Numbered from the stretch's first letter, positions 41,845 through 55,154 are shown. The stretch: 61,618 nt of DNA from an uncultured Bdellovibrionales bacterium (GCA_964556665.1 CAZKXU010000006.1:1-61618), one strand, 5' to 3'. Notes: generated from the sequence alone by a model not told the origin. Numbers and translations are program-made.

Positions 41845-42432
41845 TCACCGAGATAATTTTTTTTTGACAACACTCTTAAGTAACATCTCAAGCCGCTCTA
41901 GTATTTCCGGCTCCTCCTTAAGTTCGATAAGTGGCGCAAGTTCTTCTCTAATGATCGCAATATTTAGTTTTTCTGCCTGTCGTTTCAATGTGCTATCTAT
42001 ATCAATCCAATCCTTTGCTCTATTAGCAAAAGCTTTTAGAATAATTAGATCCTCTGCGGAACAGGTAAGGAGTTTGATATTTCTGTAATATTGAAACTTT
42101 GTAGCTCGCTTAATAATATTTTCTTCGAAGGGCATAGCACCTAAAGAAATGTCTAACGGGACGCCATTACTGGCTTCGAGTAAAAGCACCCGAAATGATA
42201 AAGCAAATTCCTTTGCATCACCTCGTCTTGCCTTAAATTGTTGAAGAAGTGCATCTATAAACCTTTCTTCTAAACCAAAACCAGTTATTACGGTTAAATC
42301 TATATCTTGCGTTAGACGAGGTTCAGCCCAGCGCTGGACTGCCAAACCTCCTATTATACAAAATTTCCATTTAAGACGCTCACAGAAATCTTGAATTTCT
42401 TGAGCTGCTACAAGTAATTTACTTTTGGCCAA
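41845..42432 (-). CDS. Pol-beta-superfamily nucleotidyltransferase (AbiEii/DUF6036-like)
   Basis: IIGGLAV......R.TQDIDL, SAEDLIILKAFANR.KDW.DI. Confidence 0.8.
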   Translation of the reverse strand: MAKSKLLVAAQEIQDFCERLKWKFCIIGGLAVQRWAEPRLTQDIDLTVITGFGLEERFIDALLQQFKARRGDAKEFALSFRVLLLEASNGVPLDISLGAMPFEENIIKRATKFQYYRNIKLLTCSAEDLIILKAFANRAKDWIDIDSTLKRQAEKLNIAIIREELAPLIELKEEPEILERLEMLLKSVVKKKLSR

Positions 42433-43991: not shown

Positions 43992-44693
43992 TTACGCATC
44001 TCTGATCGTACGGCGCTCGATCCGCTTCTCAAAATGTATGCCTTTAAAAATCCGATCAATGAAGATGCCGGGCGTGTGTATTTGGTCCGGATCAATCTCA
44101 CCGATCTCAACTAATTCCTCAACCTCTACAACTGTAGTGCTGGCTGCTGTTGCCATAATAGGGTTAAAGTTGCGGGCTGTCTTGCGGAAGACAAGATTTC
44201 CTTCCTTATCACCCTTCCAGGCTTTGATAATAGCTAGATCAGCCCAGAGACCTTTCTCCATCACATAAGTTTTGCCGTTAAACTCACGGGTCTCTTTGCC
44301 CTCTGCAACCTGCGTTCCAACTCCACTGCGTGTAAAAAAAGCCGGTATGCCGGCGCCGCCGGCGCGGATACGCTCTGCTAATGTGCCTTGCGGATTTAAC
44401 TCTAGCTCAAGTTCGCCGCTTAGGAATTGCTGCTCGAAGGTTTTATTTTCTCCAACATAAGAGGAGATCATCTTTTTGATCTGTCTGGTATGCAATAGAA
44501 CTCCCATGCCGAAGTCATCAACTCCACAGTTATTACTGATTACGGTTAGGTCTTTCACGCCCGAGGCATGCAGGGCTTTTATGCAGTGTTCAGGTATGCC
44601 ACAAAGACCAAATCCACCGGCCATAATAGTAAGATTGTCCCGTAGAAGTCCGTGCAAAGCACTCTCGGCATTTTGATATACCTTTTGATTCAT
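43992..44693 (-). CDS. scoA: 3-oxoacid CoA-transferase subunit A
   Basis: [39 protein letters not shown]. Confidence 0.93.
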
Positions 44694-44744
44694 CAACAAA
44701 GCATTAACATCGCGGCGGCATTTAATCAATATCTACGTATAGTG

Positions 44745-44787
44745 AAGGAAACTTTTTCAACATTTCTCCGAATACATAAATATAAGG
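44745..44787 (+). promoter_or_regulatory. Candidate sigma28-like promoter of the type III operon, containing a 24-mer shared with 33873-33896
   Basis: GAAA-N15-TCCGAATA; TTCTCCGAATACATAAATATAAGG at 44764-44787. Confidence 0.5.
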
Positions 44788-44849
44788 GCAGGTAGGCAGC
44801 AATAATATTCGCCAAGCTTACCACTCTATTTCTTAAATAATGGGGCGTT

Positions 44850-45158
44850 ATGCAGAGTAATACTATATCACCTAGCTCGACAGTGAGGCTTCCGCAAATC
44901 TCTGAAAATAAAACTATAGCTAATGGGGAGGGGGCCAGGTTTGGACAGGTAATGGATGAGCTGAGAGGTAAGTCTCGCGATCCGTATATAGAGCTAAAGA
45001 GCTTAAAGGAGAAGCTTTTAGGAGGTGCAGAGATTCCACCAAAAGAGCTTCTTTTATATCAGATTCGGGCAAGCGAATACGGACTTAAGGTCGAATTAGT
45101 TTCCAAGGTAGGTGAAAGTCTAAGCGCTAGTCTTAAAAAACTACAGAGCGGGAATTAG
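44850..45158 (+). CDS. SctI/HrpB2-like inner-rod-type protein (tentative)
   Basis: C-terminal PKELLLYQ.....Y...VELVSKV......LKKLQ resembles SctI/needle-family C-termini; first gene of the export operon. Confidence 0.55.
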   Translation: MQSNTISPSSTVRLPQISENKTIANGEGARFGQVMDELRGKSRDPYIELKSLKEKLLGGAEIPPKELLLYQIRASEYGLKVELVSKVGESLSASLKKLQSGN

Positions 45159-45162
45159 TCAG

Positions 45163-46020
45163 ATGGAATCTGAGGAAGTTAAAAGATATCTTATTAAGAG
45201 TCTCGCAATTGAAAGAGAGCTCACCCATACAAGAAATGAGCTTTCAGAGCTTAAGTACACTCAGAGCATTGAAGAGCGTAAGCTAAATGAGTGCAGAGCT
45301 AAATTTGCTAAGGTCAAAGAGGCTCTAGAGAAAAGGTCTACTAAAGATCCTGCTCTCGGTCTACATGAAACAAGAGAGGGTATTAAGCGTCTTAAAGAAA
45401 AAACAGTCCAGGTTAATGCACAGGCGAGTAAGACAGATGCGATTAACCATAATATAGAGAAGCAGCTATGTAAGCTGTCTGCTGAGAATCGCAGGTTTGA
45501 ACGTTGCCAGGAGATCATTAAGGAACGGCGATTTAAGGAACTCCAGCAGCGTGAGGATATCGCAGCAGAGGAACTGCAGGAAGGTGGATTATTACTTAAA
45601 TATAGCAGCGTAGAGTCACTTCCCATAACTGCAGTGCCTGTTTCTAGTAATACTAAAACTCTCCATTCTTTCATGCAGGAAGAGAATTACTGTAGTCATA
45701 ATATGGAAAGTGGCACTTCTCACAGTGAGCCTATGCCTTCATATCATGACTTTGTAGGAGAGATCTCAAAATTAAAGATCTGGAATTCACTAAATACAAG
45801 CAGAGGAATAAATTTTGAGTATAAAGATTCTACTGGTGAAAAGATCCTAGTAGATCTCTTTAGTCTTAGAGCAGATGAACTTACAGTAAATTTAAGTACA
45901 GCAAGTAAGGCAAAGCGTAGAGAACTTTTAAGTGTCAGAAGTCGGATAAAGCAATCACTCGCAGAGACTGGGTATAAATCTAAGATTGATATAATAGGAG
46001 ATTCAGGTGCCGAATATTAA
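45163..46020 (+). CDS. Coiled-coil SctO/FliJ-like N-terminus fused to a FliK/SctP-like C-terminal domain (tentative)
   Basis: About 145-aa charged coiled coil; C-terminal ILVDL....ELTVNL......RRELL.....IKQSLAETG pattern; position before sctR. Confidence 0.5.
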   Translation: MESEEVKRYLIKSLAIERELTHTRNELSELKYTQSIEERKLNECRAKFAKVKEALEKRSTKDPALGLHETREGIKRLKEKTVQVNAQASKTDAINHNIEKQLCKLSAENRRFERCQEIIKERRFKELQQREDIAAEELQEGGLLLKYSSVESLPITAVPVSSNTKTLHSFMQEENYCSHNMESGTSHSEPMPSYHDFVGEISKLKIWNSLNTSRGINFEYKDSTGEKILVDLFSLRADELTVNLSTASKAKRRELLSVRSRIKQSLAETGYKSKIDIIGDSGAEY

Positions 46021-46663
46021 TCCTATCTGGCTTGTCCTGGCTAGTTTCCTGCTAGCCCTAGCTCCGATCTTAGTTGGGCTTCTGACTTCGTATGTAAAGG
46101 TTAGTATCGTTCTTGGAATGTTGCGTAACGGCATCGGAGCTCAACAGGTTCCGGGAGCGCTGGTAGTCATGGCGTTATCTATTGCCCTTACAGCATTTAT
46201 CATGGCACCTACAATAGAGCGCACCTCTCAGATAGCAATAGGAATGAAGATCGAGGATCGCACCCCAACAGTTTCTGATATCAAGGCGATTGATCCGCTA
46301 CTAGTTCCGTGGCGTGAATTTATGATTAAGCATGCCGGCAACAGAGAGATTGCGGCATTAAAGCTGATGAGGCCTTCTCTAACAGTTGGGCAAGAACATG
46401 AGATCGGGAAAGAGTCACTATCCTTTGGGATTATCCTACCAGCCTTTGTCCTATCTGAGCTTAAGGAGGCATTTGCAATGGGATTTGTGCTACTCCTGCC
46501 GTTTCTGCTTATCGACTTAGTTGTCTCGAATGTCCTAGTAGGGTTAGGGATGATGATGGTGAGTCCAACAATGATCTCATTGCCGCTTAAATTACTGCTA
46601 TTTGTCGGATGTGATGGTTGGATTCTACTTTCACGGGGTTTAATTAATTCCTACAATGTTTGA
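46007..46663 (+). CDS. sctR: Type III export gate SctR (FliP family)
   Basis: TSYVKVSIVL..LRN.IG.QQVP, PAFVLSELKEAF, LGMMMVSP..ISLPLKLLLFV..DGW; no FliP-type signal peptide. Confidence 0.88.
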   Translation: MPNINPIWLVLASFLLALAPILVGLLTSYVKVSIVLGMLRNGIGAQQVPGALVVMALSIALTAFIMAPTIERTSQIAIGMKIEDRTPTVSDIKAIDPLLVPWREFMIKHAGNREIAALKLMRPSLTVGQEHEIGKESLSFGIILPAFVLSELKEAFAMGFVLLLPFLLIDLVVSNVLVGLGMMMVSPTMISLPLKLLLFVGCDGWILLSRGLINSYNV

Positions 46664-46916
46664 GATCTATATTCGAAACACCTTCATTCTAGTGATTGTA
46701 TTCTCAGGCATTCCGTTGCTAGTGAGTTCGGTGTGCGGTTTAGTTATCTCCATAATGCAGGCCGCTACCCAGATACAGGAGCAGAGTTTAAGCTATCTTG
46801 TTAAGTCTTTAACAGTCAGTATCGTTTTTTATCTACTGTCGAATTTTTATGCGAGTGAGTCCGTAAAGTTTTTTCAGGAGATGTTGGGAGGAATTGAGAG
46901 ATTAGGAAGGATGTAA
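46656..46916 (+). CDS. sctS: Type III export gate SctS (FliQ family)
   Basis: GLVISIMQAATQIQEQSLSYLVK. Confidence 0.9.
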   Translation: MFEIYIRNTFILVIVFSGIPLLVSSVCGLVISIMQAATQIQEQSLSYLVKSLTVSIVFYLLSNFYASESVKFFQEMLGGIERLGRM

Positions 46917-46945
46917 TTAAAGATTTTATTTAAAATAGACTAACA

Positions 46946-47674
46946 ATGGAGCACGCTCTACTAAGCAGTTTTGTCCCTTCATTTTTCCGTGCACTTGGAT
47001 TGCTCTATATATTGCCATTTGGGGAGGGGTATCTTAACGCTGCAACTAAGCTTGCTATTGCCGTAGGAATGGCACTCTTTATCCAGCCAGAGCTGCCAGC
47101 AGCTGGCCCGCTATATCCGATCTCATATATGTCGGAGTTTCTAATAGGTATATGTATCGGACTACCTACCGCTCTTACCATCTCGGCCTTTTCAATGTGG
47201 GGAGAGCTTATGGATACAGCGCGAGGTCAGAACATCTCGTATATCCTAGATCCTCTTAGTAACATTCAATCGCCATTACTTGGGGTATTTATGAACAATC
47301 TTGCCTGGAGCAGTGCTGTGCTTCTAGGGGTCCTTGAATTAAATCTGGTCGGTTATGTAAGGAGTTTTAATATAATTGCTGCCGGCGGATTTGAGATCTT
47401 CAATCTCACTACTATAGCCTCTCAGATGTTGAAGTTTCTCGGTATAAGTATCTCAGCACTACTACTTTTTCATCTACCTGTAGCGCTTCTATTCCTAATG
47501 ATCGAATTAGCTCTTGGATATATTGCGAAAGTTATACCGCGGAGCTCATTTGCCGCTGAATCATTCCAGATAAAGTCGTATCTTGGACTTTTAATGATTG
47601 TCTTGCTGCTTCAGTTGGACGTTCTGCCAAGTCTCCTCTCTTTTACTAAGCATGGAGCTTTACTGTTGGAGTAG
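46946..47674 (+). CDS. sctT: Type III export gate SctT (FliR family)
   Basis: E.LIG..IG, GELMDTARG, DP, ELALGYIAKVIP, F.IK; multi-TM; synteny. Confidence 0.85.
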   Translation: MEHALLSSFVPSFFRALGLLYILPFGEGYLNAATKLAIAVGMALFIQPELPAAGPLYPISYMSEFLIGICIGLPTALTISAFSMWGELMDTARGQNISYILDPLSNIQSPLLGVFMNNLAWSSAVLLGVLELNLVGYVRSFNIIAAGGFEIFNLTTIASQMLKFLGISISALLLFHLPVALLFLMIELALGYIAKVIPRSSFAAESFQIKSYLGLLMIVLLLQLDVLPSLLSFTKHGALLLE

Positions 47675-48457
47675 GTGATGCCGGAGGAGAAGCCTTATAA
47701 GCCTACCAAACGGAGATTAGATAAGGCACGTCGAGACGGGAAAGTCCTTAAAAGTCAACAGCTTACTCAGTCTATTGTAGTTGCATTACTTCCTCTTCTC
47801 TGCATTTATTTAGCAGGTCCTGCTTGGGTAAGGATGAGAAAGTTGTTAGAATATCAGTTGACACTAGGGTTCACCGAGCCGCTCTCTGCATTTTCTGCTA
47901 TGTTAGAAATACTTTGTGAATTCCTCTTTGTCGTATTATTGTTAGGCTCGTTTCTAGGAGTAGTTCTGGAAGGAGTTCAGATCGGCTTTCGGTTTGAGGG
48001 GGCACTTATAGCTCCAAAGTTGAGTCGTTTGAATCCAATAGCAGGGGTAGGTAAAACTCTTTCTAGTTTACGACAGATCTGGACTCAGGCGCTGCGTCTT
48101 CTGTTTCTTGTAACTGTATTTATCTGGTTTTTTAAGGGCAACTATCTTGCATACGTAAAGCTCTACTTCTTACCTCTGGAGCAGGCTTTGGAGGTCGGAC
48201 TTGAGCTACTTAAAAGACTACTGTATGTGATGGGAGTAGCAGTGATGATCGTAGGCGGCGTTGATTATCTTTTAACACGTCGTCGCTTTGTAAAAGATCT
48301 CTCCATGAGCTTGGATGAGCTAAAGCGTGAGCAGCGAGAGGATGAAGGTGATCCTCATATTAAGGCCAGACGTAAGGCGCTCCACGAGGCCATACTGATG
48401 CAGGATATTGTAAGACGGGTACGCAGTTCGAAAGTTATAGTAGTTGAGAAGATGTAA
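47675..48457 (+). CDS. sctU: SctU/FlhB N-terminal part (TM domain plus CN linker), ending at the normal NPTH position
   Basis: EEKPYKPT.RRL.KAR.DG, PKLSRLNP..G, L.MS.DELKRE....EGDPHIKARR, ends KVIVVEKM*. Confidence 0.88.
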   Translation: MMPEEKPYKPTKRRLDKARRDGKVLKSQQLTQSIVVALLPLLCIYLAGPAWVRMRKLLEYQLTLGFTEPLSAFSAMLEILCEFLFVVLLLGSFLGVVLEGVQIGFRFEGALIAPKLSRLNPIAGVGKTLSSLRQIWTQALRLLFLVTVFIWFFKGNYLAYVKLYFLPLEQALEVGLELLKRLLYVMGVAVMIVGGVDYLLTRRRFVKDLSMSLDELKREQREDEGDPHIKARRKALHEAILMQDIVRRVRSSKVIVVEKM

Positions 48458-51400
48458 TGTTGCTAGAAGCAGTTGCAGTAAAATTAAGAGAATTTTCAGC
48501 TCAGATCGTTAAGCTAAACGATGCTCAGAGTCTCTGTGATTTTGCTGCAGAATTTATAGCCGGAGAGGTTAAGCCTGACTGTATATTTCTCTACTATTCA
48601 ATTGATAATCTAAAGATTCACACAAGGATTGAAAGCAAGTTAGCAAAAGTTGATGTCTATGATTGGGAGCCTATTTACGATCCATTTGTAACCTCAGCTG
48701 ATGAGATTACGCTGCCACTTTATATCAATGATCTGCAACGCAACGTCATCCCATTACCTCTCCAGCCTCGCATTAGGGCAGATCTTAAATCTTTAGCTAT
48801 TTGGGGGATAGAGCGCGGCACTTTAGTCAGTGGAGCGATAGAGCTTCACTTCGGTGATGCATACCACCGTTGGCGTCGCGAAGAGCTTTTTCTGATAGAG
48901 CAGCTCTCTCAACTATTAGCAGTGGCCTTAGAGAGGTTCAGTACTTCAACTGCTGCTATCACAGATAATTCAGCTGAATATGAGCGCGTAGCGGAATATG
49001 GCAATCTCTTAATTGTACGCACCGACCGGGAACTTCGTATCACAAGTGTATTTGGCAGCACTGAGCGCATTACCGGAATTAAATTAAATGATTTTCTGAA
49101 TGATAGTGACATTTGGATGCGTGTAATTTACCCGCAAGATCTAGTAAAGCTTAGCCGCAAGATCGCCCGCATGCGACTTAGCCCATCCGAGATTTCCGAA
49201 GAGATTAGAATCCTCCATCAGGAGAGCGGAGCATTACGTTGGATACTACTTCGCGCCATACCTCTTTACGACAAAGGGAGGAATTTCATAGGTTGGGAGG
49301 GTTTTGGTTTAGATATAACGGACCGTTATGAAGCCCAGCAAGGGCTTAAGGCTCAAAGTAAAAGAGTAGAGGCACTCTATCAAATTTCACGTGCCTTACA
49401 GTTCACTATGGACCCGGCACTCGTGGTATTAAAGGGGCTAAAATCTCTCATTAAAGCTACTAATTCAGATGCCGGCATCGGCTTATTTTACGACCGTAAT
49501 AGTGAAATGTTGGAATTAGTCGCAGCCGAAGGTCTTTCACAGCAGTATGTTGCAGCAGTGAATAAGGTAATAAATGGGCCAAGTCTTGTACGGTATGCTA
49601 TTGATAACCGTGAAGGTATTTTACTTGATAATATTCAGCAAGATTCTAGAGCCGCAGTAGAAGTCGCCAAAATCGAGGATTTAAAATCCACGATTGTTAT
49701 GCCGCTTATGATTGACCAAACCGTATTAGGAGCGCTTGTTCTTTTTTGTAGAAAGGCGTCACGCTACAGTAATGCGGATTTTGAGCTAGTTGAAGCAGCA
49801 GCAAATCAGGTAGTTTTGGTATGCAAACAGGCGGATTTTTATGCAGCAGAGAAGAGACAGGCAAGCTCCTTAGCGGCGTTGTACCGATTAAGTCATGAGT
49901 TGGCAAAACATACGGCAACTAAAGAGATAGCAGAGAGTGCCTTCCCGGTTATTCAGGAGGAGTTTGGCTGTAAGAGGATATGGTTCGGTGTAATTAACGA
50001 CCAAGGCACTCATATTGTAGGCCAGGCTGGATATGGTCCTGGCATAAGACAGAGCATCATAGATGTACAGATCGAGTTAGATCTGCGACATGATTTCCTA
50101 GATGATGCTATTAAAAGTAAGAAGCCGGTAATAGTTAAGCCAGGGGAGCCGATGGAATGCTCCGGATTAGCACGTATCATGAAGAAACTAAAGCCTGGAA
50201 CCTTCATAATTGTGCCGTTAATCTCTCTCGGGCAGGTTATGGGTATTTTAGTGGTTGAACCTTCCGTTCCATCTAACTTTTTTGCACAGAGCAAGTTGCC
50301 GCTCTTAAGAAGTATGGCGAGTGAGATCGCAAATGTGATTTTAGCACGAAGATTCGAGTATAGAATGGCAGAGGCCGACAAGATGAGGATGGCCGGCATG
50401 TTAGCTTCAGGAGTAGCTCATAATTTCAATAATATGCTCCAAGCAGTTATGGGACAAGCCTCACTTATCGAAATGCAGCTTCCTGAGGACTCCATGCTAC
50501 GACCTTCAGCTAAGATGATCGTTGAAGCAGCGCACCGAGGGGCGCTACTGATTAAGCAACTGCTTAGTTTTTCCCGCGCAGAATCAGTCTCCTGTGTGCC
50601 TATCTCACTCAAAAAGATGCTTTTAGATTCAAATGATTTTTACAGATCGGTATTAGGCTCAGCTGTCGCGTTGAACGTAGAGATTGGAGAGGATGTGCCT
50701 GAGGTTAAGGCGGATTACAATCAGCTGCAGCAGGTCATAGCAAATATCCTAGTTAATGCTAAAGAAGCTATTAATTTTAAAACTGACGGCAAGGTCGATT
50801 TATCGCTTAAACGGGTGCGATTACTTTCAGGCGAGGTTGACCCGGAATTGCCGCCTGGAGTGTATGTTAGGCTGGACATATCAGATAACGGTGCCGGCAT
50901 GGACGCAGAGCGGCAACGCCGTTGTTTTGAGCCATTTTTTACTACAAAGAATACCGACTCAGGTAGTGGGGTTGGTATCAGCGGTTCTGGGTTAGGACTT
51001 TCTACTGCATATTCAATCATAAGACAGCATGATGGCATGCTTACAGTAAGAAGCTCCCCCGGACAGGGCTCTGTCTTTAGCTTACTCATTCCAGCATTGG
51101 TAGCTATAAAAGAGAGTGCTAAAACTGAACAGACAAAATATGAAGCACTTGATGTCATGATCTTCGATCTTGATGATTCAACCAGTCTCTCCGTAAAGTC
51201 TGCGCTTGAATCGATCGGACTTAACTCTGCTATCTACTCTGATCGAGAGGATCTATTTAAGACGGTTAAAGAGAGTAGTAAGGTTTCCCTCCTCATCTTT
51301 GATGCCGAACGGTACGGCTATGAGTTTGAGGAGATGATTAGCAAGATTAGAGCAATGAAGCCTGAACTTAAGATCTTGATCTCAGCTCTTAATTACACCC

Positions 51401-51621
51401 GTTGGCAACGCATCTTTGGTCATTTAGAAGGTATTGAGATCATAGAAAAACCTATCGGCGTTTGGGCTGTGCACTCAGCGGCTAAGAGACTATTGGGAAG
51501 AAATAATGCTACACAGAAACTTGTTCAGGCAATTGAAAAGGAGAAGATTAACACGGAATTAAATCTCTCCGGCGAGTCTCAGGAGAATAATGACACACTA
51601 CTTTATGGATCAAAACTGTAA
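48457..51621 (+). CDS. Cytoplasmic hybrid histidine kinase (GAF-PAS-GAF-GAF-HisKA-HATPase-REC)
   Basis: PAS W...IYPQD...RW...DIT; AHNFNN H-box; NILVNAKEA; DNGAGM; FEPFFTTK; GSGLGL; REC LLIFD...EKP. Confidence 0.9.
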   Translation: MLLEAVAVKLREFSAQIVKLNDAQSLCDFAAEFIAGEVKPDCIFLYYSIDNLKIHTRIESKLAKVDVYDWEPIYDPFVTSADEITLPLYINDLQRNVIPLPLQPRIRADLKSLAIWGIERGTLVSGAIELHFGDAYHRWRREELFLIEQLSQLLAVALERFSTSTAAITDNSAEYERVAEYGNLLIVRTDRELRITSVFGSTERITGIKLNDFLNDSDIWMRVIYPQDLVKLSRKIARMRLSPSEISEEIRILHQESGALRWILLRAIPLYDKGRNFIGWEGFGLDITDRYEAQQGLKAQSKRVEALYQISRALQFTMDPALVVLKGLKSLIKATNSDAGIGLFYDRNSEMLELVAAEGLSQQYVAAVNKVINGPSLVRYAIDNREGILLDNIQQDSRAAVEVAKIEDLKSTIVMPLMIDQTVLGALVLFCRKASRYSNADFELVEAAANQVVLVCKQADFYAAEKRQASSLAALYRLSHELAKHTATKEIAESAFPVIQEEFGCKRIWFGVINDQGTHIVGQAGYGPGIRQSIIDVQIELDLRHDFLDDAIKSKKPVIVKPGEPMECSGLARIMKKLKPGTFIIVPLISLGQVMGILVVEPSVPSNFFAQSKLPLLRSMASEIANVILARRFEYRMAEADKMRMAGMLASGVAHNFNNMLQAVMGQASLIEMQLPEDSMLRPSAKMIVEAAHRGALLIKQLLSFSRAESVSCVPISLKKMLLDSNDFYRSVLGSAVALNVEIGEDVPEVKADYNQLQQVIANILVNAKEAINFKTDGKVDLSLKRVRLLSGEVDPELPPGVYVRLDISDNGAGMDAERQRRCFEPFFTTKNTDSGSGVGISGSGLGLSTAYSIIRQHDGMLTVRSSPGQGSVFSLLIPALVAIKESAKTEQTKYEALDVMIFDLDDSTSLSVKSALESIGLNSAIYSDREDLFKTVKESSKVSLLIFDAERYGYEFEEMISKIRAMKPELKILISALNYTRWQRIFGHLEGIEIIEKPIGVWAVHSAAKRLLGRNNATQKLVQAIEKEKINTELNLSGESQENNDTLLYGSKL

Positions 51622-51625
51622 CCGT

Positions 51626-51883
51626 ATGGTTAATCCCAAATACAAGCTCGCTATCGGACTGGAATATGAAGAGAATGGAGAGGCAGCTCCTAGGCTGGGA
51701 GTAAAGGGTGAAAACCTTATTGCAGATGAGGTTGTTAAGGTAGCCCGTCGTTTTGGTATTCCGGTCGTAGAAAAGGCAGATCTAGCAAAATCCCTCACTG
51801 CGCTTGAATTAGAGGAGGAGATCCCTGAGAGCCTATATCAAGCCGTTGCCGTTATATTAAATGAAATAGGAAAGAAGGGCTAA
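51626..51883 (+). CDS. Stand-alone SctU/FlhB C-terminal (CC) domain (FlhX-like)
   Basis: MVNP...AIGLEY.....AP....KG....A......A....IPVVE...LA..L.......IPESLYQAVAVIL. Confidence 0.88.
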   Translation: MVNPKYKLAIGLEYEENGEAAPRLGVKGENLIADEVVKVARRFGIPVVEKADLAKSLTALELEEEIPESLYQAVAVILNEIGKKG

Positions 51884-51985
51884 GTTAAAGAAAGGACAGT
51901 AGTCTATAATATATCTTTTCAGATAGGCATACCTCTTGCACTTTACAGATTCCTTAGTTTTTTAATATAATCTAGGGGGTTAGAC

Positions 51986-53044
51986 GTGTTTGCAGATTCT
52001 ATCTCGGACTCTAGTTTCCCATATATGAGTACTTTAGAGTTAATTGAACTTAAGAACCAGGGTGCACACTCTCTTGCAGTATTGCAGGCAGATACGTTAA
52101 TTGGACGTGAGCCGGATAGTGGTGGGATTGCAGTTAACAATAGTGCTGTCTCAAGAAACCACGGTAGGTTTATGCGTGTCTCCGATTACTGGCTTTTCAA
52201 AGACCTAGCTAGCACTAATGGATCTTGGCTAAACGGTCAGCAGCTCCGCTCAGAGCAATTATGCATATTAAGGCAGTCAGATATTTTGCAGCTTGCTGAT
52301 AGTGCCTTTAAGATTTTGATTAAATCCCCATCTGAGTCTAATAAGCTTCCAACAGGTCGTTCTTTATTAGTTTTTAAAAATGATACATTTGTTGAGGAGT
52401 ATCATATCCCGGAATACGGGAGAGCGTTCGTTTTAGGAGGCAGAGAAGGTGATCTGCAGTTTGAGGAGAGCGGAGAGGATCTCCCGGTACTTGTAGTGGA
52501 GGGCCGCGGCGCAGATATCGTAGTTTATGGTCTAAGAAAGTCACAAAGTATTACTGTTAATGGTGAGGAGACTCGTTCGACTAAAGTAGTCGTCGAGCGC
52601 GATGAGATTAAATTTAAGAATTATTCGTTTCTTATTAACTGTGCAAGAGCTGTCACGCGTATGACAGAGAAAGAGCCACCTCCACAGATTAAAGCGAAGC
52701 CTGTAGTAGCAGGAGGAGCTGCGGTGCTAAAGGAGTGGGGCAGCGAAGAGCCAGCGCACAGGAGCGTATCCACGCAGGAGAAGGGGATGCGTACCCATTC
52801 CGGGCGTATCATGTTTGGTGCTATAAGTGAAGGAGAAGTGGAGTCGGATGCTACAGTGGCTATCGACTCGTCCATTGTCTCACGCCGTCTTTCAGGAATT
52901 GAAAAGAATCCAGTCTTGTCGAGACATGAAGAGGATTCACAGGAGTTGATGCTTAATTCATTAGAGGATCGGCTCCTAATAGTAATCGGTTTTGTAATGC
53001 TGATAGCCTTGATGATTGGTGTGGCTGTTTGGGTGTTCGTGTAA
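51986..53044 (+). CDS. FHA-domain protein with second FHA-like domain and C-terminal TM anchor
   Basis: IGR, VSRNH, DLASTNGSWLNG; C-terminal LLIVIGFVMLIALMIGVAVWVFV; true start may be ATG 52026. Confidence 0.85.
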   Translation: MFADSISDSSFPYMSTLELIELKNQGAHSLAVLQADTLIGREPDSGGIAVNNSAVSRNHGRFMRVSDYWLFKDLASTNGSWLNGQQLRSEQLCILRQSDILQLADSAFKILIKSPSESNKLPTGRSLLVFKNDTFVEEYHIPEYGRAFVLGGREGDLQFEESGEDLPVLVVEGRGADIVVYGLRKSQSITVNGEETRSTKVVVERDEIKFKNYSFLINCARAVTRMTEKEPPPQIKAKPVVAGGAAVLKEWGSEEPAHRSVSTQEKGMRTHSGRIMFGAISEGEVESDATVAIDSSIVSRRLSGIEKNPVLSRHEEDSQELMLNSLEDRLLIVIGFVMLIALMIGVAVWVFV

Positions 53045-53144
53045 ATCTAAGAACAATCAATATCTACTCTAAGACTTTTTACTAAATACATATGTCCACG
53101 CGAAGCGTAGCCCAGCACGCAAAGGAATTAAATGGGATTCCGTT

Positions 53145-53170
53145 GCGGGCTGAAAGCCCGCGGTCCCAGT
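53145..53170. repeat. Single intact REP arm with a degenerate partner upstream
   Basis: gcgggctgaaagcccgcggtcccagt. Confidence 0.75.
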
Positions 53171-53185
53171 GAGATTCAGATTGTA

Positions 53186-54163
53186 CTAACTCGGCAACAC
53201 CACCCTAAGTTTATACGCACTAAGATCAAGCCTTTTATATTCAATCTGTAGTTTGTTCGTCTTAACGATATCCTGTAAGGCCTCTTTGCAAAGTAATCTT
53301 TCTCCTACGCTCTGCTCTCCAAAAATTAGATCAATGTCAGAGGCAGCGCCGCCCCAGGAACCCTGCTGAGCTTCAGCAGTGATAATAAGATTGCATTTTG
53401 AATGGTCGGGGAGTACCCTAATCTCAATTATCCCTGAGGAGCCAACCGTATCAACAGCTAAAAGTATAAGCTCTGCTAGGATTCTAAAAAGATGCGGCTG
53501 GGTAAGTAGAATCTTCAGATCCTCGCGGCAGTCAACACGTACTGACACATCTGATGGAATAACATGATCAAGGTATTGTAAGACTATGTTGAGTGTGGAC
53601 TGAATGCTGCTTTGAGGGTTTTTATTAGCTGTAGGAGTGTCGATACTAACTGATTGGAGCGCACCGCGATCTAGTAGGACACTACTTGCTAACAATCCAA
53701 GAGATCGTCCACGCGAGACATCCCTAACTGTCCTTGCTAAATCGCGCACGGCTACTTTAACTCGCTCAGCACCATAAATCCTCTCGCGGCGTAGTGCGAT
53801 GAAAGCCCAGTACGTAAGCTCTACATCAAAGGGCTGCTGTAGTACTACCGCACAGCCAGCTTCGTATAGTGGCCTGCTAAAACTTCGATCGTCAGATAGC
53901 AAAAGAGTTACTACTGGAATGTGAGCTAGATCTGGATCTGCTTTAAGTTCAGCTAATTTTGCCAGGGCATTTATCTCACCACTAAGTAGGCTAGGAACAA
54001 TCACCAGATCAAAAGGATCTGCCTCATCCCGCATTAAGTGCAAAATATCTTTTCCCTCATTTACTTCACGAACCATATAGTCGTGACGTCTAAACAGATT
54101 AGTAATCTGCGTCCTTTTACTATCAGAGGGCTTAAATAATGCGATGCGTAAAGGAATGTTCAA
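53186..54163 (-). CDS. Degenerate receiver domain plus pseudo-histidine-kinase-like protein
   Basis: REC-like FDLVIVP, IPVV.L, QQPF; SLGLLASSVLLD lacks the His; L..ILAELILLA.D in the N-box position. Confidence 0.65.
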   Translation of the reverse strand: MNIPLRIALFKPSDSKRTQITNLFRRHDYMVREVNEGKDILHLMRDEADPFDLVIVPSLLSGEINALAKLAELKADPDLAHIPVVTLLLSDDRSFSRPLYEAGCAVVLQQPFDVELTYWAFIALRRERIYGAERVKVAVRDLARTVRDVSRGRSLGLLASSVLLDRGALQSVSIDTPTANKNPQSSIQSTLNIVLQYLDHVIPSDVSVRVDCREDLKILLTQPHLFRILAELILLAVDTVGSSGIIEIRVLPDHSKCNLIITAEAQQGSWGGAASDIDLIFGEQSVGERLLCKEALQDIVKTNKLQIEYKRLDLSAYKLRVVLPS

Positions 54164-54209
54164 GATTGGGCCCTTTTAATTATCACCTAGTCATTATATA
54201 TTAACCGTT

Positions 54210-55154
54210 ATGCGTTGCATAGTAACAGGAGTAGCGGGCTTTGTAGGCTCTTCTCTGGCAGAGAGGCTATTAAGGGATGGACATACCGTTATCGGTATTG
54301 ACTGTTTTGTCGAGTATTACCCGCGGGGTATTAAGACTAGAAATCTAGCTTCTTTATTGGGAAATCCTAAATTCACTTTTATAGAAAAAGATATACTTGC
54401 GCTTGATATTAAGAATGAATTTGCCGGCGCAGAACTTATTTTTCATCAGGCAGGGCAAGCAGGAGTGAGAGCTAGCTGGGGGAGTTATTTTGATACTTAT
54501 TGCAGACATAATATCCTAGCTACGCAGCATATTTTAGAGGGAATAAAGGGGCAGTCTAATATCAAAAAGCTGGTTTTTGCCTCAAGCTCATCTGTCTATG
54601 GTGATGCAGAGAGCTTTCCTACGAAGGAGTCAACTTTGCCCAAACCAGTAAGTCCATACGGAGTAACGAAACTTGCGGCTGAGCATCTAGTCACTCTTTA
54701 TGCTTCCCAATTTGGAGTGCCGACTACCTCGTTAAGGTATTTTACGGTATTTGGTCCGCGTCAGCGCCCAGATATGGCCTTTAACCGTTTCATGCGTCAG
54801 GCACTAACAAATGAAGAGATTACACTTTACGGTGATGGAACACAGAGTCGTGATTTCACATTTATAGACGATATAGTCACAGCCAATATTTTAGCCTCTG
54901 AGCATGGTACTCCAGGATCGGTATACAATATTGGTGGTGGAACTCATGCTACCGTTAATCAAGTACTAGAGATAATTGCCTCATTCGGTGTTAACTTAAA
55001 TATTAAACGTTATGACAGGCAGATTGGTGATGCTAAGCATACAAGTGCTGATACCTCAAAAGCAGGTGTAGAGCTTGGTTTCATTCCTAAAGTTAACCTA
55101 ATCGACGGCTTAAAAGCTGAATTTGATTGGATGAAGAGAGAGTTGGGGTGCTAG
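54210..55154 (+). CDS. NAD-dependent nucleotide-sugar epimerase/dehydratase
   Basis: VTGVAGFVG, ASSSSVYG, SPYGVTK, LRYFTVFGPRQRPDMA, RDFTFIDD. Confidence 0.92.
   Translation: MRCIVTGVAGFVGSSLAERLLRDGHTVIGIDCFVEYYPRGIKTRNLASLLGNPKFTFIEKDILALDIKNEFAGAELIFHQAGQAGVRASWGSYFDTYCRHNILATQHILEGIKGQSNIKKLVFASSSSVYGDAESFPTKESTLPKPVSPYGVTKLAAEHLVTLYASQFGVPTTSLRYFTVFGPRQRPDMAFNRFMRQALTNEEITLYGDGTQSRDFTFIDDIVTANILASEHGTPGSVYNIGGGTHATVNQVLEIIASFGVNLNIKRYDRQIGDAKHTSADTSKAGVELGFIPKVNLIDGLKAEFDWMKRELGC

Follow-up and report, generated by a model that had tools for sequence, protein, structure and literature searches.

SctU of a non-flagellar type III export gate is encoded by two genes that flank a sensor histidine kinase gene

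SctU, the type III secretion switch protein, ordinarily cuts itself in two, and the role of this autocleavage in the SctU/FlhB family has long been debated. Stand-alone proteins corresponding to the CC part of FlhB also exist, among them FlhX/HP1575 of H. pylori and YlqH of B. subtilis, which we take to be paralogues of the TIGR00789 flhB_rel type. Such proteins accompany an intact FlhB and are spare parts at most. Co-produced fragments of FlhB are reportedly functional though the chain is broken, in work from 2000 attributed to Minamino and Macnab. According to Monjaras Feria et al. 2015 (PMC4620466), SpaS autocleavage is unregulated, SpaS that is precleaved or cleaved by a protease performs as wild type, and a broken chain at the cleavage site, however made, gives a functional switch protein. 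Our literature searches found no earlier description of a split sctU gene with an embedded kinase gene.

We analysed a window of 61,618 nucleotides, i.e. the whole stretch of DNA under study, from the 163-contig metagenome-assembled genome of an uncultured Bdellovibrionales bacterium (GCA_964556665.1 CAZKXU010000006.1:1-61618). ORF analysis revealed that SctU is encoded in two genes, with a kinase gene between them, in the following cluster.

44850-45158, plus strand: orf102, a small conserved protein heading the cluster, possibly an SctI-like inner rod protein; a weak assignment, as the sole Pfam hint (T3SS_basalb_I, E 0.15) is far below the cut-off
45163-46020, plus strand: orf285, probable fusion of an SctO-like coiled-coil hairpin with a T3S4 (substrate-switch) domain of the SctP/FliK type, from its fold and Foldseek matches
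46007-46663, plus strand: sctR (FliP family), non-flagellar type (PF00813, E 7.9e-56)
46656-46916, plus strand: sctS (FliQ family; PF01313, E 6.3e-19; best NCBIfam match TIGR01403 SctS)
46946-47674, plus strand: sctT (FliR family; PF01311, E 2.5e-29; best NCBIfam match TIGR01401 SctT)
47675-48457, plus strand: sctU(N), membrane domain, linker and CN strand, stopping at the former cleavage site (PF01312 and alignment)
48457-51621, plus strand: cytoplasmic sensor histidine kinase with a variable N region, PAS, GAF, GAF, HisKA, HATPase_c and a receiver-like C domain (Pfam, motifs and fold)
51626-51883 (alternative start 51590), plus strand: sctU(C), the complete CC subdomain as a gene of its own (PF01312, profile match and complex model)
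51986-53044, plus strand: FHA/YscD-cytoplasmic-domain protein with a C-terminal membrane anchor (PF00498, E 1.7e-12; PF16697, 33.7 bits for a cut-off of 33.2; hydrophobic segment 321-352)
53186-54163, minus strand: divergent receiver-like protein, candidate signalling partner (Response_reg, 21.3 bits, below the cut-off of 30.2)

The sctU(N) ORF codes for 260 residues, ending with VRSSKVIVVEKM, and its TAA codon (48455-48457) shares one base with the kinase ATG at 48457. The kinase ORF, of 1054 residues, stops with the TAA at 51619-51621. Four nucleotides further on, the ATG at 51626 opens sctU(C), whose product begins with MVNPKYKLAIGLEY and whose ORF ends at 51883. An initial annotation made from the sequence alone had described these ORFs and junctions in the same way, including the TAATG overlap and the 4-nt gap. 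It had also assigned the entire CC domain to the sctU(C) ORF, which is correct for the content, but the start of the gene is uncertain (85-97 residues) because there is an alternative start at 51590 (97 residues), with AGGAG 4 nt 5' of it, that overlaps the 3' end of the kinase gene. At both junctions, stop and start codons overlap or almost touch in many related loci.

Both halves match the Pfam profile PF01312 (FlhB/HrpN/YscU/SpaS), sctU(N) at positions 1-256 of 335 (E 1.6e-50) and sctU(C) at positions 256-333 (E 1.9e-18), and the break therefore falls at one profile position. The sctU(N) protein has four hydrophobic, i.e. membrane, segments followed by a charged linker with a conserved E-G-D-P motif. 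Alignment with full-length relatives places its tail, KVIVVE-KM, on the strand VV(I/V)(T/V)N-PT, just before the point of cleavage between N and PTH, and sctU(C) begins a few residues ahead of the H-Y-A-V-A-L strand. The NPTH motif itself is absent. The sctU(N) protein terminates with VIVVEKM, the position of the Asn is occupied by E, S, G, D or N in relatives, and no PTH was seen in the aligned sctU(C) heads of the relatives. The 'NP' in the MVNPKY start of sctU(C) should not be taken for a conserved trace of NPTH, because these residues vary in relatives. A profile built from 26 sctU(C) homologues matches the solved FlhB-CC chain 3b1s_B from its residue 3 onwards (E 9.9e-20), as well as solved FlhB, YscU, EscU, PscU and SpaS chains. 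The C-domain fold of SctU, composed of the CN strand and CC, is complete only across the two genes, and the whole-protein cut-off of TIGR01404 (358 bits) is reached by neither sctU(N) (158) nor sctU(C) (63). The two proteins are members of the SctU/FlhB family by descent, not by mechanism, since the single-polypeptide NPTH motif is absent.

In models of the complex between residues 200-260 of sctU(N) and sctU(C), the ipSAE score was 0.76 in three of three runs and 0.00 in the best of three controls, a measure of likeness rather than of binding because the model may recall solved SctU/FlhB C-domains. The partners have pLDDT values of 80-81, with at least 98% contact agreement between runs, and for this tool 58 of 80 solved complexes reach the mark, as do 2 of 110 mismatched pairs. 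Residues 248-260 of sctU(N) pair with residues 3-14 and 45-51 of sctU(C), such that the tail strand lies between sctU(C) strands. From this model we infer that the two products re-associate into the SctU C-domain, the pairing of CN with CC for which the initial annotation had proposed structure prediction.

Of 42 related loci, which represent many families and several orders, 38 have the gene order sctR-S-T-U(N)-kinase-U(C)-FHA, and two of the four exceptions are loci cut by contig ends. The sctU(N)-kinase-sctU(C) arrangement occurs in 19 of 20 loci of the same order and in two further, non-duplicate public loci; in another set of 20 loci, 18 of them belonging to other orders of the class, 17 have it. 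Across these related loci, sctU(N) identity to the window copy falls to 25-41%. In a phylum-wide set, 89 of 124 genomes have a match to sctU(N) at E<=1e-15, the best one lying in an open frame of 194-331 residues in 85 of them. Similarly, 149 of the best 150 library representatives (50% clustering) have 172-290 residues and are N-only or fragments. The nearest relatives do not carry an intact NPTH-containing sctU but the split form, and intact NPTH is found only in other lineages, which is the opposite of the outcome that the initial annotation had named as refuting its reading. The linkage is not obligatory. It is broken in one genus (G065), which retains the kinase gene and has sctU(C)-like genes on other contigs, and 2.7 kb separate the kinase gene from sctU(C) in locus L044. 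In addition, an unrelated gene follows sctU(N) in G066, and there is an in-frame TAA inside sctU(N) in one relative, G074. Comparisons of 13 gene pairs from five locus pairs, covering sctU(N), the kinase gene and sctU(C), gave pN values of 0.09-0.40 and pS values of 0.58-0.79; dN/dS values are rough because dS is saturated (>1.1). Judging from these substitution patterns, both SctU halves and the kinase are under purifying selection.

In a phylogeny of the N part, the 44 split sequences group into a single clade (SH-aLRT 93), within a group supported at 96 that includes SctU proteins of Myxococcota and of the Hrp (Xanthomonas/Burkholderia) type, apart from the flagellar FlhB of the lineage itself (100). 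Among the NCBIfam models, sctU(N) scores higher with SctU (158 bits) than with FlhB (134 bits), and sctR passes the cut-off of the EscR/YscR/HrcR subfamily NF009438 (202.9 bits for a cut-off of 179). By sequence affinity, the locus is therefore a non-flagellar type III export gate. The genes for SctV, SctJ, SctQ-like, SctL, SctN and SctD-like FHA proteins are dispersed over contigs of the same genome. No dedicated T3SS secretin was identified in the genome, which has two secretin genes, neither of them assigned to a particular system. Besides a flagellum, this uncultured freshwater lineage has non-flagellar T3SS-like genes in two unusual, scattered sets.

Several neighbouring genes are also shared. 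In many of the related loci, tblastn detects orf102 ahead of sctR, and the FHA gene lies downstream of sctU(C) in most of them. The AlphaFold model of orf285 (pLDDT 79) starts with two long helices (4-150), which a disordered linker connects to an alpha/beta domain (194-278). In the PDB, Foldseek ranks the FliK C-domain 2rrl first (E 1.4e-3), the PscP switch domain 5cuk second (E 2.3e-3, TM 0.72 on the target) and the YscO homologue 3k29 41st, with no match reaching E 0.001. Pfam Flg_hook matches 6 of 14 positional homologues of orf285, the best at E 4.8e-4, all below the cut-off. Based on these sub-threshold matches, orf285 is probably an SctO/SctP-like (T3S4) switch partner. The gene for the receiver-like protein adjoins the cluster in five related loci by tblastn (L028, L030, L032, L036 and L045), and its product is a candidate signalling partner.

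The presence of the arrangement in 38 of 42 loci, the single clade, the constraint and the modelled pairing argue that sctU was split at the NPTH site by an ancient fission, which took the place of autocleavage and left a working two-piece SctU, an explanation that we consider highly probable. This agrees with the initial annotation, which had proposed both the replacement of autocleavage by fission and a selected arrangement as opposed to decay. Fission at the autocleavage site would permanently divide SctU into two polypeptides. The sctU(N) product would extend from the four membrane helices through the linker to the first beta strand of the cytoplasmic domain, and sctU(C) would supply the rest of that domain. 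The products would re-join by strand complementation to give the fold of an ordinary self-cut SctU. Because the separate products would thereby attain the post-cleavage fold, the self-cleavage chemistry would be dispensable and NPTH could be lost. The SctU made of two pieces should remain able to switch substrate specificity, as a T3S4-type partner is probably encoded just upstream. The gene of a soluble GAF/PAS kinase would have entered at the break before the clade began to diversify, and it may be transcribed with, and translationally coupled to, both halves. Most likely, this kinase would be a dedicated sensor that conveys an intracellular signal to the expression or activity of the secretion system by phosphotransfer.

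Pfam detects a PAS, two GAF, a HisKA (28.7 bits, cut-off 26.9) and a HATPase_c domain (71.8 bits) in the kinase, whose two hydrophobic stretches fall inside the GAF regions. At least 80% of the 41 homologues retain the H, N, G1, F and G2 motifs, whereas the N- and C-terminal domains are variable or missing in relatives. The initial annotation had called the kinase a hybrid. The fold of the C domain supports this, as its model (pLDDT 84.3) resembles CheY and receiver domains dominate the top Foldseek rows, and so does NCBIfam, with VirA-like and CckA-like matches covering residues 631-1020 and the VirA-like alignment reaching residue 1020. However, this domain has no match to Pfam Response_reg even at E<=1, and about half of the relatives lack it or have a C-terminal part that cannot be aligned. 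An Asp that closes strand 3 is mostly conserved, as is a K-P pair, but not the first acidic pair. The kinase is conserved with its catalytic motifs intact, and it is probably co-expressed with the two halves. Whether it has a regulatory role is, in our estimation, an even call, with gene order as its only observed tie to SctU.

Alternatively, the kinase might be a physical part of the switch, docked on the cytoplasmic domain of sctU(N)/sctU(C) or on the T3S4 protein, where it would gate substrate switching by ligand or report the export state to gene expression. Its position between the halves is kept over a class-level clade, codons overlap at both junctions, and the second GAF and the kinase core are its best-conserved parts (0.43-0.62 mean identity to the window copy per 50-residue block). 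Its closest paralogues in the genome match the core only, at 26-30% identity. Nevertheless, domain analysis found no domain peculiar to a secretion-switch context and none of an unknown type fit for docking, the end domains are variable, and one genus retains the kinase gene at a locus from which sctU(C) is gone. We thus regard docking as rather unlikely, and its strongest version, in which the export switch includes the kinase as a structural subunit, in a ternary assembly with sctU(N) and sctU(C) at the cytoplasmic face of the gate, as unlikely. If that assembly were true, a two-component sensor would be built into the type III secretion gate; an intracellular signal sensed by the GAF/PAS domains would act directly on the machine's choice of substrates or, alternatively, T3S4 occupancy of the switch would be reported to transcription by phosphorelay.

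The order might also be a frozen accident, the kinase gene having landed in the sctU loop-coding site, where it was tolerated because the protein is cut at that loop anyway, with a function unrelated to secretion and an order kept by inertia. As precleaved SpaS is fully functional and cleavage is no signal per se (PMC4620466), a gene inserted here would be close to neutral; sctU(C) can lose its linkage, and the kinase sensor domains differ between lineages. We nevertheless find this quite improbable, as the kinase gene is in place in nearly all loci despite the low sctU(N) identities and its core is strongly constrained (pN 0.09-0.26 and pS 0.70-0.79 in four of five locus pairs), whereas an unrelated passenger would be expected to move or vanish more often.

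The fission explanation takes sctU(C) as the partner of sctU(N), but the genome also encodes a full-length flagellar FlhB with NPTH and, on contig C47, a separate FlhX-like CC protein, with the flagellar fliPQR and flhBA genes elsewhere in the genome. A membrane-domain-only SctU-like gene is present in the genome and its relatives. Stand-alone CC proteins being known elsewhere, sctU(C) could be a spare CC of the FlhX/YlqH type for flagellar FlhB, next to a truncated sctU(N) that works or idles without CC; its TIGR00789 score (62.4 bits, below the cut-off of 117.35) is near that of the SctU model (63.1 bits). This is very doubtful, however, given that sctU(C) lies within the sctRSTU cluster, whereas a stand-alone CC gene should lie apart from export-gate genes, that it is beside sctU(N) in those 38 loci, and that it pairs with the sctU(N) tail strand in the model. 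Furthermore, its nearest neighbours in the CC tree are sctU(C) proteins of same-order loci, the C47 copy groups elsewhere, and tblastn with sctU(C) does not find that copy at E 1e-3. The pairing of a stand-alone CC with a full-length FlhB described in the initial annotation exists in this genome, but sctU(C) goes with sctU(N). Lastly, an assembly error or a recent pseudogenization by an inserted gene, for which the fragmented source genome and the in-frame TAA of G074 might speak, can practically be dismissed, as 38 independently assembled genomes share the architecture, the frames are all intact and under constraint, the best library representatives are almost all N-only or fragments, and Logan contigs from three runs of one freshwater sample, made with an independent assembler, bridge both junctions with zero differences, although they are not independent support because that sample may be the source of the window's own assembly.

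The cleavage chemistry thus appears to have been discarded and only its product kept across several orders, which supports the view that the machine needs a broken chain at the loop and not a cleavage event. Naturally separate CN and CC are ready partners for structural and binding studies, and the locus flags a poorly known uncultured freshwater lineage. To our knowledge, no direct coupling of a cytoplasmic sensor to a type III export gate has been described, and literature searches found no case; the conserved kinase between the halves is a concrete candidate for it. Compared with the autocleaving SctU/FlhB proteins (YscU, EscU, SpaS/Spa40, HrcU and FlhB), the locus has the same family, domain order, coverage of PF01312 throughout, place after sctR-S-T and two-fragment end state, with the CN strand and CC joined in the model. 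In contrast, the chain is broken at the level of the gene and not by proteolysis, the NPTH motif is missing, and one gene is replaced by two, separated by a 3.2-kb kinase gene. Like FlhX/HP1575 and YlqH, sctU(C) is a small CC-only protein, but it is the sole CC for a CC-less sctU(N), to which it is linked. Pre-cleaved SpaS and co-produced FlhB fragments are laboratory constructs, whereas the present break is natural, ancient and lineage-wide, with an extra gene in the gap. The fused FliR-FlhB of some Firmicutes (NF009411, which matches sctU(N) and sctU(C) separately) is also a natural rearrangement of the export gate, but it results from the fusion of neighbours, whereas here a single gene was split.

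Between positions 44850 and 53044 of the window, every gene lies on the + strand. The cluster comprises, in order:

First gene, + strand: 102-aa ORF
45163-46020, + strand: 285-aa ORF (orf285)
Next three genes, + strand: sctR (PF00813), sctS (PF01313) and sctT (PF01311), by Pfam
47675-48457, + strand: sctU(N), a 260-aa ORF matching positions 1-256 of the 335 in the PF01312 (FlhB/YscU family) profile
48457-51621, + strand: kinase of 1054 aa with PAS, two GAF, HisKA and HATPase_c domains
51626-51883, + strand: sctU(C), an 85-aa ORF matching PF01312 positions 256-333
Last gene, + strand: FHA/YscD-cytoplasmic-domain protein of 352 aa whose last 30 residues are hydrophobic

Inspection of the ORFs showed that the initial annotation had described the junctions of the three central genes correctly. 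Base 48457 is common to the TAA of sctU(N) and the ATG of the kinase gene, and the sctU(C) ATG at 51626 lies 4 nt past the kinase stop. An alternative sctU(C) ATG at 51590, with AGGAG 4 nt upstream, would make the protein 12 residues longer. CoA-transferase genes flank the cluster upstream; downstream come a receiver-like gene (53186-54163) and LPS-core genes. The CoA-transferase genes and the receiver-like gene have the opposite orientation to the cluster. A few kb upstream, at 41845-42432 (- strand), we also noted a gene for an AbiEii/DUF6036-type nucleotidyltransferase, which is type IV toxin-antitoxin-like. A scan of 44600-54300 yielded 10 promoter-like sites versus 17.4 expected and 8 terminator-like sites versus 7.0 expected; as these counts are near or below expectation, the scan is uninformative. 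The gap between sctU(C) and the FHA gene contains the top promoter-like site (51942-51971, 11 of 12).

We aligned both SctU pieces with full-length relatives, including the FlhB of the window's own genome (G000). The end of SctU(N), KVIVVE-KM, falls on the strand VV(I/V)(T/V)N-PT of those proteins, and SctU(C) starts a few residues ahead of the strand that comes after the autocleavage motif NPTH. A profile of 26 SctU(C) homologues matched the solved chain 3b1s_B of FlhB CC, the part of the cytoplasmic domain after the cleavage site, from its third residue (E 9.9e-20). Judging from these alignments, the sctU gene is broken at the autocleavage site. The NPTH motif is absent from the split SctU. 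The 'MVNP' of the window's SctU(C) (MVNPKY) was considered as a relic of it and rejected, as 'NP' is not conserved among relatives.

A first protein search with SctU(N) returned homologues of 255-270 aa with 32-43% identity, and those that were aligned stop at the same site. Each of the 41 genomes searched (the window's own and 40 others of its order) has SctU/FlhB family matches, and most carry one copy in a short frame and another of ~365-390 aa. When the window proteins were mapped onto 20 same-order loci, SctU(N), the kinase and SctU(C) were found in order at 19, the contig of the 20th ending within the kinase. These loci usually have sctR-S-T before the trio and an FHA gene after it. The same three genes are in order at 17 of 20 further loci, 18 of which are from other orders of the class. 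As for the exceptions, one contig stops after sctU(N); genome G065 has the kinase after SctU(N), but U(C)-like genes on other contigs; and in G066, of the same genus, the genes downstream of sctU(N) are unrelated. A one-genome-per-species scan collected 80 loci, four of them split likewise, including two that duplicate loci already counted. The 76 others, from Xanthomonas, Burkholderia, Myxococcota, Gemmata and others, have a single continuous frame, with NPTH in 63. Overall, the sctU(N)-kinase-sctU(C) order is present at 38 of 42 non-duplicate related loci, which confirms and much extends what the initial annotation had observed in the window. At one locus (L044, contig C6 of G038), sctU(C) lies ~2.7 kb past the end of the kinase gene.

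In a phylum set of 124 genomes, SctU(N) had a match at E<=1e-15 in 89, the best match lying within an open frame of 194-331 aa in 85 of these. G088 and G026 have longer stop-to-stop frames, yet both are split on inspection, and the sole match in G051 and G060 is a frame of 374-380 aa. In G074 (contig C63, 27017-27787), the match contains an in-frame TAA, possibly reflecting a pseudogene or a sequencing error. An exhaustive HMMER search of 1.84 billion representatives, with no length limit, gave 5863 matches. Among the 150 best, 149 proteins, including the window's own, are 172-290 aa long, the sole long one has NPTH, and no SctU(N)-kinase fusion is found. Production of such a fusion by frameshift or read-through was rejected, as in relatives the junctions vary between an overlap of 1 nt and gaps of >100 nt; no conserved slippery context was found at the junctions of the relatives inspected.

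The initial annotation had also envisaged decay or mis-assembly of the locus. In 13 gene-pair comparisons from five locus pairs, pN (0.09-0.40) is well below pS (0.58-0.79); dN/dS, where computable, is 0.04-0.42, these values being rough because synonymous sites are saturated. In three runs, the contigs of an independent assembler, whose source sample may be the same, span both junctions with zero differences; some parts of the window have no contig cover in these runs, and none of the runs listed as containing the sequence is of RNA. The split arrangement is old and conserved, not broken.

A full-length flhB does exist elsewhere in G000: it codes for an intact 364-aa flagellar FlhB with NPTH and adjoins flhA. 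The flagellar fliPQR, FliF, FliI and FliM/N are also located elsewhere in the genome. For both SctU(N) and SctU(C), the NCBIfam SctU model outranks that of FlhB, and SctR scores above the EscR/YscR/HrcR NCBIfam cut-off. A quick IQ-TREE search on 85 rows of the N-terminal part places all 44 split sequences in a single clade (SH-aLRT 93). This clade is nested in a group (support 96) that also includes SctU of Myxococcota and of the Xanthomonas/Burkholderia type; nine flagellar FlhB from the lineage of the split copies branch apart (100). In a CC tree, which has few columns, split and flagellar CCs are set apart with one change (support 93). On these grounds the split SctU is not the flagellar copy. 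The remaining non-flagellar core genes are scattered over G000 contigs and include two hrcV-type SctV, two SctJ, two SctQ-like proteins, SctL-SctN and two SctD-like FHA proteins. G000 also encodes a 107-aa stand-alone FlhB-CC paralogue of the FlhX/YlqH kind, unlinked to export-gate genes (contig C47, locus L004, 1450-1773). It scores 74.4 bits with TIGR00789, below the cut-off of 117.35, and does not group with SctU(C) in the CC tree.

An ordinary SctU cuts itself between the N and the PTH of its motif, and both pieces remain together. A Salmonella study describes SctU cleavage as unregulated and preceding assembly, and machines with precleaved or protease-cleaved SpaS as behaving like wild type (PMC4620466). 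It follows that breaking the gene at that loop should be tolerated, and NPTH would then be dispensable; its absence from the sequences is what such a break predicts. Protein trans-splicing by a split intein was rejected, since the SctU(N) tails past the last strand (0-15 residues) and the SctU(C) heads (~6-15 residues) are too short for intein halves. We modelled residues 200-260 of SctU(N), which include CN, the part before the cleavage site, with SctU(C). The complex scored 0.76 in all three runs, versus 0.00 for the best of three controls, with partner pLDDT of 80-81 and contacts agreeing at at least 98% between runs; with this tool, 58 of 80 solved complexes attain the mark, as do 2 of 110 mismatched pairs. 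In the model, the tail strand of SctU(N) packs against SctU(C) residues 3-14 and 45-51. As cleaved SctU/FlhB C-domains have already been solved, this score may come from structures known to the predictor, and the model shows that the halves still resemble the two SctU fragments, a likeness rather than binding. Fission of the SctU gene at its autocleavage site is well supported.

Of 41 homologues, at least 80% retain the H-box (AHNFNN), N, G1, F and G2 motifs of the kinase. Conservation is highest in the second GAF domain and in the kinase core; the N-terminal ~170 and C-terminal ~150 residues are variable. Its best paralogues in G000 match it in the kinase core only, at 26-30% identity. Based on its conservation, the kinase gene is a fixed, constrained member of the operon since before the clade diversified. 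The two hydrophobic stretches of the protein sit within the GAF regions, and we do not read them as membrane helices. The initial annotation had called the kinase 'hybrid'. Its C-terminal domain has no Pfam receiver match; nevertheless, it is predicted to adopt a CheY-like fold (pLDDT 84.3), with chiefly receiver domains in the top Foldseek rows, and it can be aligned to VirA-like kinases over their receiver end. The term is thus reasonable for the window's copy. From its linkage, the kinase may act on the secretion system, and it may regulate the switch. The opposite-strand receiver-like gene, which also adjoins the cluster in five related loci, is a candidate partner of the kinase.

Upstream of sctR, orf285 is modelled as a long coiled-coil hairpin followed by an alpha/beta domain. 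The FliK C-domain and the PscP switch domain come first among its structural neighbours, with a YscO homologue lower, all with weak E-values. Six of 14 positional homologues have Flg_hook matches, all sub-threshold. An ESM Atlas search gave no usable match for orf285, and a PDB sequence search with its profile returned chance-like rows only. With moderate confidence, we regard orf285 as an SctO/SctP-like partner of the switch. It seems to be a single protein in which an SctO/FliJ-like coiled-coil hairpin is joined to a T3S4 domain of the SctP/FliK kind. Its positional counterpart in other orders has only ~150 aa and, judged by eye, looks like a coiled coil only.

Other unusual export-gate genes were noticed at four loci, three of them in G000:

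Contig C110 (L130, 5261-8107, - strand): third, very divergent export-gate set, with FliP-family (201 aa) and FliQ-family (79 aa) proteins, membrane proteins of 194 and 197 aa, an 84-aa ORF and a TPR protein
Contig C42 (L131, 264-18875): one hrcV-type SctV, directly downstream of Tad-pilus-like genes (CpaB, CpaE-like, CpaF, TadB/C)
Contig C49 (L132, 5997-12889): second SctV, clustered with a sigma-70-family factor, SctJ, an SctQ-like protein, a TPR protein and a receiver-HisKA protein
Contig C23 of G065, of a small-genome genus (L140, 1796-10530): both non-flagellar sets adjoining, in the order sctT, sctU(N), kinase, SctT-like gene, membrane-only SctU-like gene, TPR gene

The 197-aa protein of C110 matches PF01312 weakly and in the membrane part only (positions 38-194, E 0.037); its equivalents in G065, G040 and G020 are above the Pfam cut-off, over ~positions 2-231 only. 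It is an SctU-like protein without any cytoplasmic C-domain. The C49 cluster and the C110 set may be partners; the latter likewise carries sigma-like and TPR genes. The surroundings of the C42 SctV are unusual for this protein, with a Ser/Thr kinase, an FHA protein and a PP2C phosphatase farther upstream and a kinase/HEAT protein after it. L140 has no sctU(C), and two stand-alone CC genes are on other contigs of G065.

A library of open-access papers, searched mostly at the abstract level, yielded no account of an SctU/FlhB that is split in nature or that has a kinase inside it.
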